Shown here one piece after another: positions 8,067 through 10,461 of a stretch of DNA of 64,000 nt. The notes under the pieces are model-generated. The model worked only from the letters and a program-made list of their open reading frames with translations, had not been told where the DNA came from and made no database searches. Positions within the stretch are counted from its first letter, which is position 1. Every line of letters starts with the position of its first letter. Source of the DNA: Candidatus Bathyarchaeota archaeon (GTDB taxonomy: Archaea; Thermoproteota; Bathyarchaeia; Bathyarchaeales; Bathycorpusculaceae); assembly GCA_963815095.1 (NCBI GenBank), contig CAWFFH010000006.1, positions 147,289-211,288 on the forward strand. Reading direction: 5' to 3'. A program made the position numbers and the translations under genes.

Positions 8067-8765
8067 TCAAATTCGCTGTGCAACAATCATTGCGTGTGCT
8101 TTGTCGTATGGTTCTAGATCCACGATTTCTTTTACGTCAAAACCCCTGTTTCTTAGTATGGCTGCTTCTTGGCGATAGACTGCATTGGGGTCCATTGTAA
8201 CGTCGATGCTTTGGGATTTGCATGCAAGCATAACCCAGCCTTGTGGTTTGAGGAAAACGTCTGCGTTGTCTGCGAGGAGTTTGGCTTGTTCGGGTTGTGC
8301 GACATCGCAGTAGATCGTGTCGACTTTGCCTGAGATGAACATGGCGTACCGCTCGGGCAGGCGTGCATCTTCGAGCATAGGTGAAATGTTGTTTCGGTAA
8401 GCCGCGACATTGTTAACTAAATCTCGAAGAGAGCGCTGCGCAAATTCTACGCAGTAAACGTGTCCGGTGTCACCGACTATGTCTGAGACATGGCTAGGTG
8501 TGGTTCCAGAGGCTGCACCCAAATAAAGAATTTTGAACCCAGGTTCGACAGGTACGTTTTGGACGCCTTTTATGATGGCTCCTGCAAGTTTACTGCGGAA
8601 CGCATCCCAAACTCGGTACTCAACATATTTGAATTTGAAAAGCCGTTCGCCATAAACCCGAAGCCCAGGGGTCAAGTTTTTTGTGGCTAACCGCTGATGA
8701 CCGTCTTCCAGCATTACTTGGTAGATTTCTTCGAATTTAGGGTGTGGTTTAACTTTGAGGTGCAC
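8067..8765 (-). CDS. flpA: Fibrillarin-like rRNA/tRNA 2'-O-methyltransferase
   Basis: VYGE, YRVWDAFRSKLA, LYLGAASGTTPSH, DVAQPEQ and LEPYDKAH motifs. Likely start is GTG 8765, overlapping the nop5 stop. Confidence 0.93.
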   Translation of the reverse strand: MHLKVKPHPKFEEIYQVMLEDGHQRLATKNLTPGLRVYGERLFKFKYVEYRVWDAFRSKLAGAIIKGVQNVPVEPGFKILYLGAASGTTPSHVSDIVGDTGHVYCVEFAQRSLRDLVNNVAAYRNNISPMLEDARLPERYAMFISGKVDTIYCDVAQPEQAKLLADNADVFLKPQGWVMLACKSQSIDVTMDPNAVYRQEAAILRNRGFDVKEIVDLEPYDKAHAMIVAQRI

Positions 8766-10182
8766 GTCGTTCTGGTCCCCGGTTTTGACCGCCACCGCTA
8801 CCGCTTCCGCCGCGTCGGTCACCTCTATCGCCGCCACCGTAACTGAAGTTGCGTCCTCCGCCTCCACCGCCGCCTCCGCGATGTGGTGGTCTTGGACCTC
8901 TATCGCCGCCACCAAAGTTTTTGCCACCGCCCCTGAATCCGCCTCGGTCATCTCTTCGTGGAGGTCGTTGTTCTCTTCGTTCAAATCCCGCTGCTCCTTC
9001 GGGACGTGGTTTAACTTCTTTTGGCGCTGGGGGTTCTTTGTATTTTACGTGGATTTCTTCTATGCGTTTGTTAATGTCCTCTTTTAATTTGTCTCCGATA
9101 TAGTGTCCTGCTCCGAAAGCGTCAGCTCGAGCTGCAATGGCGAGTTTGCCTGCAATGACCCGGGCGATTTTTCCGCGTTGCCACCTTTTGGCGTCATGAA
9201 GCAGGGTGTGTTGGAAAATTAATCCATGTTTTGGTGGTCGTGCTCCTGTTTTTAGGCTGCGGAAGAGGGCTTTTTCTGCACCTATAACTTGTATAGTGCT
9301 TGCTGGTCTCATGGCTAAGTTTTGTAGACTTCCTGCCATGGCAATCAAACGTGCCCCCAAAAGGGATCCAGCAACAGCGCGTACGTTTGGCGCGAGTTCC
9401 TCCATAGTGTGGTCAACGTAATCTTCCATGTTCTTGCGCAACAAATAGAAATCCAAAACGTTCTTGGCTAAGTCTTGCACCATTTCCAGGTCGGCTTCTG
9501 CCACATCTGCGCCCATAGATGATTCAGCTGCTTTCGCCATAAGCTGGGTTCGTTCTTTTGGAATGTTCTCTTTTTCCAAATTGTCAATAGTAAAGTTTTC
9601 CCTATCACCCAAGTTCACAACAAGCCTGGAGTACGTTTCGTGTTTTTCGACCAGACGATCAAGCTCTGGGAAGTACACGCCATACCATTCGCGGAGTCTG
9701 CCCATAAAGAGGTTAACGGTTTGATCTAAACTATCGAGTGTTTGGATGCCTTGAGCAACTATTAAGTCACGTTTTCCAGTGGCACCTTTAATCCGTAACT
9801 TTGCAAGTTCCAAACTGACACTGCGGTTCCAAACGCTAAGTTCCTGTTCGTCCTTCGCAAAGCCTACCTCAATCGCTAATTCACCCATCCGCGAATGAAG
9901 CACGGCGGTTTCCGCGGGCTTTGCAACTTCAACTTTGACTTTCATTTTCTTTTGGGCTTCTTCTGCCAACTTGCCGGATTCAAAAACAAAAGTATCGTAA
10001 CCTACGCTTGCGAGAAGTGATATTAAGGATGAGACTTGATCGGATAATTTTCCAGACTCAGTTTTTAGCATGCTTTTTGCTGCTGCCACCGCATTTTTTG
10101 GAAACAGTGCTTTTTCTACTAAGCCGTTGTTTTCGTCGAAGGCTGCAACGCCGAAGGGAAATTGAATGATGACTATTTTCAT
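8749..10182 (-). CDS. nop5: Nop5 (Nop56/Nop58) C/D box sRNP protein with a C-terminal Gly/Arg-rich tail
   Basis: REWYG-FPEL, APN, LGARLI, PASTIQVIGAEKALF, PPKHG and RGKIAR motifs, followed by an RGG-rich tail. Confidence 0.93.
   Translation of the reverse strand: MKIVIIQFPFGVAAFDENNGLVEKALFPKNAVAAAKSMLKTESGKLSDQVSSLISLLASVGYDTFVFESGKLAEEAQKKMKVKVEVAKPAETAVLHSRMGELAIEVGFAKDEQELSVWNRSVSLELAKLRIKGATGKRDLIVAQGIQTLDSLDQTVNLFMGRLREWYGVYFPELDRLVEKHETYSRLVVNLGDRENFTIDNLEKENIPKERTQLMAKAAESSMGADVAEADLEMVQDLAKNVLDFYLLRKNMEDYVDHTMEELAPNVRAVAGSLLGARLIAMAGSLQNLAMRPASTIQVIGAEKALFRSLKTGARPPKHGLIFQHTLLHDAKRWQRGKIARVIAGKLAIAARADAFGAGHYIGDKLKEDINKRIEEIHVKYKEPPAPKEVKPRPEGAAGFERREQRPPRRDDRGGFRGGGKNFGGGDRGPRPPHRGGGGGGGGRNFSYGGGDRGDRRGGSGSGGGQNRGPERRAPQS
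8821..8913. repeat. 18-bp direct repeat ACCTCTATCGCCGCCACC (8821-8838 and 8896-8913), encoding GGGDRG twice in the Nop5 tail
   Basis: Exact match read from the sequence. Confidence 0.85.
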
Positions 10183-10461
10183 GTTATTTGGCCCCGATAA
10201 ACTATGCATTGTAACTGCATTGTCTTTATAAATAGTTTCGTTGCCCGCAATCCAAAAGAACCGTTTTTTTTAATTTATATGCCTTGAGATGCCAGAAAAC
10301 TATGGTTTGTTCTGGTTTTATTTTTGTTTTTTAGGAGGTTTGCTTATATTTTTCAAAAAAGTTAATACACAGCCTATAAATTAGTTGAAAACAAGGAAGG
10401 AAATCAAATCGAAGCTTCCAAAACAAATTCAAAAATTACTAAATTAAAGAGCGGTAAAATA

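Follow-up and report, generated by a model that had tools for sequence, protein, structure and literature searches.

In archaeal box C/D small ribonucleoprotein particles (sRNPs), Nop5 serves as the scaffold and fibrillarin as the 2'-O-methyltransferase. Structures of archaeal Nop5, also called aNOP56, have been solved, of which we take 3id5, 3pla, 2nnw and 3nmu to be examples. In eukaryotes, a glycine- and arginine-rich domain, the GAR/RGG domain, is found in fibrillarin (Nop1/FBL), and also in Gar1 and nucleolin. Two papers present this domain as a distinction between the eukaryotic and the archaeal fibrillarins (PMC7194090, PMC7962484), and these two and a third regard both the lysine-rich tails of the small nucleolar ribonucleoproteins (snoRNPs) and the GAR domain as inventions of eukaryotes that are tied to the nucleolus (PMC7194090, PMC7962484, PMC11528048). 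The third study reports that, in yeast, snoRNPs are drawn to nascent rRNA electrostatically through the KKE/D domains, and says that archaeal snoRNPs lack lysine-rich and GAR intrinsically disordered regions (IDRs) (PMC11528048). In both S. acidocaldarius and T. kodakarensis, nop5 and fibrillarin form a bicistronic operon (PMC5539422); the frameshift mentioned in that paper concerns an engineered l7ae control and not nop5-fibrillarin. Here we analyze a stretch of 64,000 nucleotides, hereafter the window, from contig C6 of the genome of a Candidatus Bathyarchaeota archaeon (2.69 Mb, 98% complete, 41.7% G+C), in which the nop5 gene ends in a GAR-like tail and overlaps the start of the fibrillarin gene.

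We consider it quite probable that this tail is a translated and selected local version of the basic Nop5 tail that acts as an RNA-binding arm, that fibrillarin is made as a separate protein, and that the reading frame of fibrillarin, which is open across the tail-coding DNA, is a by-product. The literature searched, the coverage of which left out subscription journals, yielded no account of an archaeal Nop5 with a GAR-like tail.

The two genes (Table 1) constitute the nop5-fibrillarin operon of a Bathyarchaeia archaeon. In Nop5, the Nop domain (PF01798) covers residues 158-384 and profile positions 2-227 of 228 (E = 3e-71), the fibrillarin-binding domain Nop5_56-rel_N_Arc (PF21572) covers residues 11-137 with a score that exceeds the cut-off (E = 1e-13), and the NCBIfam equivalog profile for aNOP56 (NF011121) yields 463.4 bits, as compared to a cut-off of 452. 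As the Nop5 homologs and the profiles begin at residue 10 of the 486-residue reading, the ATG at 10182, which corresponds to residue 10, appears a likelier start than the first ATG. Fibrillarin is matched by PF01269 at residues 5-230 of 232 and profile positions 1-224 of 227 (E = 6e-95), and by NF003276 with a score of 259.8, as compared to a cut-off of 113. Both proteins are thus predicted to be full-length members of their families, with scores over the curated cut-offs. Like the solved archaeal proteins, Nop5 of the window has an N-terminal fibrillarin-binding domain, long helices and a Nop domain, with fibrillarin encoded directly downstream. Unlike them, it has a 91-residue G/R-rich tail without a counterpart: the best sequence matches in the PDB, 5jpq_S and 3id5_A (the latter presumably Nop5 of S. 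solfataricus), reach residues 10-406 at most. The arrangement of fibrillarin directly 3' of nop5 on the same strand was recovered in 80 of 80 loci from named species genomes, which are mostly Bathyarchaeia along with some Thermoprotei, Methanomethylicota and Hadarchaeales, one Heimdallarchaeota and one Promethearchaeota.

Table 1. Features of the nop5-fibrillarin locus, with positions counted from the first nucleotide of the window.
Feature	Position	Strand	Description
nop5 (aNOP56) coding sequence (CDS)	8749-10209	minus	486 aa counted from the first ATG; Pfam and NCBIfam profiles
Fibrillarin CDS	8067-8765	minus	232 aa, GTG start; Pfam and NCBIfam profiles
Basic low-complexity C-terminal tail of Nop5	8752-9024	minus	Residues 396-486, 91 aa past the Nop domain
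G/R-dense, predicted disordered part of the tail	8752-8946	minus	Residues 422-486; AlphaFold2 pLDDT
Exact 18-bp repeat, copy 1 (ACCTCTATCGCCGCCACC)	8896-8913	minus	Encodes GGGDRG; 100% identity
Exact 18-bp repeat, copy 2 (ACCTCTATCGCCGCCACC)	8821-8838	minus	Encodes GGGDRG; 100% identity
17-nt overlap of the nop5 3' end (stop TAA 8751-8749) with the fibrillarin GTG (8765-8763)	8749-8765	minus	Predicted translational-coupling junction
Open non-coding stretch of the fibrillarin (+1) frame	8766-9044	minus	93 codons; Ala/Glu/Val-rich peptide
Shine-Dalgarno-like GGGGA	8776-8780	minus	10 nt upstream of the fibrillarin GTG, inside the nop5 CDS

The tail, which a first-pass annotation of this DNA described as rich in RGG, FGGG and GDRG, is real and GAR-like. 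It comprises 33% glycine, 20% arginine and 11% proline, with little lysine (3%), glutamate (5%) or aspartate (5%; 10% for the two acidic residues together), and has a net charge of +11 and five RGG/GGR motifs. The G/R-dense part, which starts at residue 422, contains RGGFRGGG, FGGGDRG and YGGGDRGDRRGG. In an AlphaFold2 model built from a 43-sequence alignment, the core of Nop5 (residues 11-400) has a predicted local distance difference test (pLDDT) score that is mostly above 90, whereas the G/R-dense part has scores below 50 and no secondary structure. The tail has a G+C content of 60.1%, as compared to that of the nop5 core (45.7%) and of the window (40.6%). The composition of the tail exceeds chance: a tail with 60% G+C inside a genome with 41-42% G+C is not explained by mutational drift.

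For comparison with the tail, we took four eukaryotic fibrillarins (P0291, P0294, P0299, P0301) and, in each of them, the 90 residues that adjoin the methyltransferase domain. The arginine fraction (0.20 in the tail, 0.16-0.19 in the eukaryotic proteins) and the net charge (+11, and +11 to +17) are similar, and the tail shares with the eukaryotic GAR domain the richness in glycine and arginine, the strongly positive charge, the predicted disorder, the presence of Phe-Gly and RGG elements and the membership of the same box C/D particle. However, it is located at the C-terminus of Nop5 rather than at the N-terminus of the methyltransferase, its glycine fraction is 0.33 as compared to 0.41-0.63, it is richer in proline (0.11) and in Asp+Glu (0.10), and its density of RGG/GGR motifs is 3-5 times lower (5 in 91 aa, as compared to 17-25 per 90 aa). 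Judged by composition, the tail thus appears to be a diluted GAR-like sequence on a different protein of the same particle. No matches to the PRMT5 family (PF05185) were identified in the 98% complete genome; the matches to PF06325 span only the generic S-adenosylmethionine-binding core, and this family also has matches in all 14 control genomes.

The tail DNA was aligned with that of the four closest genomes, the Nop5 proteins of which are 88-94% identical to that of the window; these comparisons share one reference and are not independent. The 209 substitutions in the tail are distributed over the first, second and third codon positions of the Nop5 frame as 45, 34 and 130, and the listed gaps all have lengths that are multiples of three. 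Among these close relatives, the amino acid identity in the tail (86-95%) is comparable to that in the core (89-94%), with more insertions and deletions in the tail. Two contigs from soil metagenomes matched the tail DNA. One is identical to positions 8854-9089, with zero differences, and the other, at 8750-9106, has 12 substitutions and one in-frame insertion of 3 nt. Together with the low pLDDT scores, the codon-position bias, the gap lengths, the retained identity and the matching contigs indicate that the tail is a translated, disordered part of Nop5 and that purifying selection acts on it in the frame of Nop5. Its length evolves via in-frame slippage of GGN/CGN repeats.

The 18-bp internal duplication reported in the first-pass annotation proved to be exact (ACCTCTATCGCCGCCACC in Table 1 is the repeat as read on the plus strand). 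Given the same hexapeptide and the codon usage of the tail itself, the probability that the two copies have identical codons is P = 0.0016. The nucleotides of copy 1 are identical in one relative (L007), while the four closest relatives encode GGGR(D/E)(R/G)G at the site of copy 2, with other codons and extra residues. The duplication therefore arose recently and in this lineage, by slippage or conversion. In a soil-metagenome contig from a close strain, an in-frame CGT insertion behind position 8830 gives the GGGR-DRG form of the relatives.

We surveyed the C-terminal tails of Nop5 in archaea, with tails classified as GAR-like if they contain at least 30 aa, at least 20% glycine, at least 12% arginine and at least two RGG/GGR motifs. 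Among the 120 best-scoring clusters at 90% identity (about 67-93% identical to the query), 45 were GAR-like, 73 R-rich, 1 K-rich and 1 other (a fusion), with none that were tailless or truncated. The 21 best-scoring of these clusters (P0003-P0023) were all GAR-like, and they retain the ordered motif series GGFRGGG ... RNFSYGGGRDRGDRRGG ... QNRGP(D/E)RRAPQS. At a broader scale, the GAR-like state was rare. Only 7 of the 150 best representatives at 50% identity (32-89% identical), which were found with the Nop5 core as the query, were GAR-like, as compared to 46 R-rich, 53 K-rich, 34 tailless, 1 other and 9 truncated proteins. The nearest of these representatives to the query, P0123 (72% identity), has an R-rich tail with 3% glycine, which is not GAR-like. 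Among the 80 named species genomes, 4 had GAR-like tails, 47 R-rich, 26 K-rich, 1 other and 2 no tail, and none was truncated. In the order-level set of 30 loci, the tails of L012 and L023 were left unscored (in-frame stops in the assemblies), and other families of the order to which the window genome belongs have short K/R tails.

For the Asgard archaea, 81 genomes from the phylum of the Heimdall genome were screened, 78 of which encode a Nop domain, and 35 loci were inspected: a set of 30, and five additional loci that were chosen for the longest open frames. In the set of 30 (L113-L142), there were 6 R-rich tails, 21 K-rich tails, 2 others and 1 protein without a tail, with none truncated; the 21 K-rich tails are short, at 10-32 aa, and basic. 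No GAR-like tail was identified in any of the 35 Asgard loci, and none of the five additional tails is G-rich with repeated RGG. The statement of the first-pass annotation that Nop5 tails are usually Lys/Glu-rich was correct only in part: most tails in the archaeal sets examined are short, basic and Lys/Arg-rich, or else missing.

A FastTree phylogeny was inferred from 94 Nop5 cores, comprising the query and 93 of the 150 representatives, with 57 dropped for a missing N- or C-terminal part of the core. The five rows labeled as GAR-like in this tree require at least 4 changes. The scattered counts and the changes in the tree indicate that the GAR-like state is young, scattered, convergent and restricted to certain lineages. 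Most archaeal Nop5 tails are short and Lys/Arg-rich, and a positive net charge is retained in nearly all tail types. Our surveys, including the 21 short K-rich tails of the Asgard loci, do not bear out as a general rule the statement in PMC11528048 that archaeal snoRNPs lack lysine-rich and GAR IDRs. Within a single genus, the shortest tails have about 22 residues and the longest more than 140, with tandem repeats in some of them. Some tails in P0170, P0177, P0183, P0238, L025 and P0283-P0287 extend over 195 to about 380 residues of tandem peptide repeats, and the repeat units in long Nop5 tails include, for example, DRNERSGG, RGSRDESRGSRDGY, GGGKFREGGGSS and GGRRE.

This variability within one genus, the absence of a tail from 34 of the 150 representatives and the recent exact duplication would all be expected if the tail were neutral low-complexity sequence that has grown by replication slippage and is tolerated at the end of the protein, yet a neutral tail should not show the strong bias for the third codon position, gaps in multiples of three, as much identity among close relatives as the core, or the motif series with RNFSYGGGRDRGDRRGG across P0003-P0023. 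It should also not have a composition that runs counter to the low G+C content of the genome, nor keep its positive net charge in nearly all tail types. We consider neutral growth an unlikely explanation for the tail.

The overlap of 17 nt between the nop5 stop codon and the start of fibrillarin was as the first-pass annotation had described it. Fibrillarin is read in the +1 frame with respect to nop5, and this frame was likewise reported to be open over the tail, from position 8984; it is indeed open, but for 93 codons upstream of the GTG, up to position 9044, and the TTG at 8984 is merely its first start-like codon. A stop codon in the +1 frame requires an NTA or NTG codon, i.e., a codon for Leu, Ile, Met or Val, and the last 85 residues of Nop5 contain none of these amino acids, so that no +1-frame stop can occur across the tail. 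When the nop5 gene was recoded synonymously in 5000 trials, with codons drawn from the usage of the genome, the open +1 run upstream of the GTG was never shorter than 82 codons, and in 62.6% of the trials it equaled or exceeded the observed 93. Of the 270,631 runs between stop codons in the whole genome, only 1.7% attain a length of 93 codons. This open frame is thus unusually long and yet fully explained by the amino acid composition, an outcome that the first-pass annotation had itself listed as counting against its proposal, and it carries no signal. No coding constraint was found in the +1 frame upstream of the GTG, where the second codon position would take 130 of the 209 substitutions, and the +1-frame peptide is not conserved among the close relatives. 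On the plus strand, two antisense open reading frames (ORFs) cover the tail (8755-9087 and 8849-9103; 110 and 84 aa), the second of which corresponds to a poly-Pro peptide; these are by-products of the GGN repeats and not genes.

Fibrillarin has a start of its own. A GGGGA or GGAGA motif is located about 10 nt upstream of the fibrillarin start at the equivalent place in loci of the genus, and of the 30 order-level loci aligned there, 28 have a start codon at the corresponding place (23 GTG, 4 TTG and 1 ATG). The 17-nt overlap recurs in 17 of the 30 order-level loci and in 38 of the 80 named loci, and 34 of these 38 have a Shine-Dalgarno-like GGAG, GGGG, GAGG or GGTG at 5-16 nt upstream of the start. 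The geometry is variable among relatives, with overlaps of 17, 11 and 4 nt as well as small gaps. The start codon and the motif of its own indicate that fibrillarin is made as a separate protein from its GTG, and its translation is probably coupled to the termination of nop5. As in other overlaps of stop and start codons in prokaryotic operons, the downstream start and a Shine-Dalgarno-like motif lie inside the last codons of the upstream gene, and the junction geometry is kept in many nop5-fibrillarin relatives, as in coupled junctions, with coupling being a prediction in this case. This junction also accounts for the constancy of the end of the tail (…NRGP[D/E]RRAPQS), the codons of which contain the fibrillarin start and the Shine-Dalgarno-like motif.

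We also searched for fibrillarin relatives longer than 406 aa, which gave 47 matches. Five of these carry both a Nop and a fibrillarin domain (P0047, P0274, P0275, P0283 and P0284). The 693-residue protein P0047 (79% identity in the Nop5 part, 92% in the fibrillarin part) keeps to the tail as far as …RGDRRG, after which 17 residues from the +1 frame lead into fibrillarin. In P0274, the two proteins are joined directly within the overlap, and in P0275, P0283 and P0284 the shift takes place inside the tails. All are fusions of a whole Nop5, the clusters of these metagenome proteins contain 1-3 members each, and P0037 (5 members), with a tail nearly identical to that of P0047, is unfused. In two assemblies of close relatives, L016 (G009) and L040, the nop5 tail is in the third frame (…GGGRSRSKTTTSRRWRW…), and the nop5 gene of G009 matches the query in three separate pieces; these shifted tails are either assembly errors in G-runs or pseudogenes. 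The third-frame tails make G-run errors a live explanation for the fused ORFs as well, and sequencing errors of this kind are as likely as real alleles. Nine other long fibrillarins of 413-531 aa (P0276-P0279, P0281, P0285-P0288) have long N-termini of low complexity, most of which are rich in Ala/Glu/Val/Thr; these N-termini are probably mis-called starts that extend into the out-of-frame tail of the upstream Nop5. An in-frame RG-rich N-terminal extension of an archaeal fibrillarin was not found in 30 + 80 + 35 upstream frames or in the search for proteins longer than 406 aa, lengths of 233-406 aa not having been searched as proteins.

The first-pass annotation had proposed that a single indel or a +1 shift would move the GAR sequence onto the N-terminus of fibrillarin, that the tail is hence a plausible route to the eukaryotic GAR-fibrillarin, and that it marks condensate-forming sRNPs. 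The frames of nop5 and fibrillarin are indeed one base apart, a single indel does fuse them, as in the five ORF clusters, and the arginine content and the net charge of the tail are similar to those of the eukaryotic GAR regions. However, the fusions retain the whole of Nop5 and so yield Nop5-tail-fibrillarin rather than a free GAR-fibrillarin, and a shift inside the tail exchanges the remainder for an Ala/Val/Glu-rich out-of-frame sequence. The small size of the fused clusters, the unfused near-twin P0037 and the plausibility of G-run errors also speak against the proposal, as do the sporadic and shallow occurrence of GAR-like tails (7 of 150 representatives, 4 of 80 named genomes, at least 4 changes in the tree), a second outcome that the first-pass annotation had named as counter-evidence, the 35 Asgard loci with neither a GAR-like tail nor an in-frame RG-rich extension of fibrillarin, and the RGG density that is 3-5 times below that of the four eukaryotic fibrillarins. 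In view of these results, we regard the stepping-stone scenario as very improbable.

A programmed +1 shift of the ribosome close to the 3' end of nop5, which would make a minor Nop5-fibrillarin fusion and to which the conserved 17-nt overlap, the fixed +1 relation of the frames and the fused ORFs among metagenome proteins could point, is the least credible of the alternatives, given that the +1 frame lacks a coding signal (130 of 209 substitutions at its second position) and encodes an unconserved peptide, that the junction offsets vary (overlaps of 17, 11 and 4 nt, and small gaps), that fibrillarin owns a Shine-Dalgarno-like motif and a start codon, and that double coding and the ribosome-binding site explain the conservation of the overlap; a search for slippery sites was not specifically made at this junction.

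We return to the preferred reading of the tail as a basic arm of Nop5. The tail would be a local version of the basic C-terminal tail of most archaeal Nop5 proteins, which is usually Lys/Arg-rich, and the corresponding basic tail of eukaryotic Nop56 and Nop58 would be the KKE/D domains. Like the KKE/D domains, the tail is located C-terminal to the Nop domain, is predicted to be disordered, has a net positive charge and is presumed to have an electrostatic role in RNA proximity. Unlike them, it is an Arg/Gly polycation and not a Lys/Glu/Asp polyampholyte. It is also far shorter than the eukaryotic KKE/D domains, and the Lys-rich tails of the Asgard archaea (10-32 aa) are much shorter too. Since its position, charge and disorder match those of the other archaeal Nop5 tails and of the KKE/D domains, we read the tail as a putative RNA-binding arm, and it is probably a compositional variant of the basic Nop5 tail with electrostatic binding to RNA. 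Nop5 is dimeric in solved archaeal sRNPs, and each box C/D particle would therefore carry two tails. These would function as non-specific electrostatic arms that keep the particle near its rRNA or tRNA substrates. We take the likeness to the GAR domain of eukaryotic fibrillarin to be a matter of convergence.

Several observations weigh against this interpretation. The length, composition and repeat content of the tail are highly variable inside the genus, so that whatever the tail does tolerates wide sequence change and selection could be weak. The threshold for the GAR-like class is arbitrary, with borderline tails (P0024, P0025) just outside it and near-misses that are plainly related. We infer the binding to RNA from composition only. 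Finally, matches to the locus were obtained in 16 public sequencing runs, none with more than 30% of the sampled words, four of which were examined as contigs only; the two contigs from RNA libraries span positions 8545-8669 in fibrillarin only and leave the tail uncovered.

Our surveys show that archaeal Nop5 proteins commonly have a basic disordered tail, with the K-rich ones being the majority of the Asgard loci inspected, and that the GAR-like version has evolved several times. Such tails would provide natural test cases for the role of a tail on a guide-RNA methyltransferase in cells without a nucleus. Since the open fibrillarin frame is a compositional artefact, a tempting false lead is removed, and this artefact is probably also the source of over-extended and fused fibrillarin ORFs in public sets. 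A more speculative extension, to which we assign a rather small chance, is that the guide-RNA particles of archaea have acquired disordered tails of the GAR-like kind more than once, and that in this lineage of soil Bathyarchaeia the two tails may give rise to an RNA-dependent self-association that clusters the rRNA-modifying machinery on nascent rRNA. If true, the dense fibrillar component would have a prokaryotic counterpart that arose by convergence, and publications that describe such IDRs as eukaryote-specific would have to be revised.

Outside the nop5-fibrillarin locus, we applied a strict R/G filter to the 6154 six-frame ORFs of at least 80 aa in the whole genome. Only two of these passed the filter, the ORF with the nop5 tail and an ORF on contig C1 (46914-47516, plus strand), located outside the window, which encodes an SSB-like protein with an OB-fold (PF21473, E = 3e-17). 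The C-terminus of the SSB-like protein is a Gly/Arg/Tyr tail of about 60 residues with RGG and YGGG repeats. A looser R/G filter added a uS4 ribosomal protein with an S4 domain (PF01479), encoded on contig C3 (370407-371009, minus strand) and thus also outside the window. As the whole-genome filter yields few ORFs, RGG tails are limited to a few nucleic-acid-binding proteins in this organism, among which the uS4 protein ends in a short RGRRGGRGGGRF tail.

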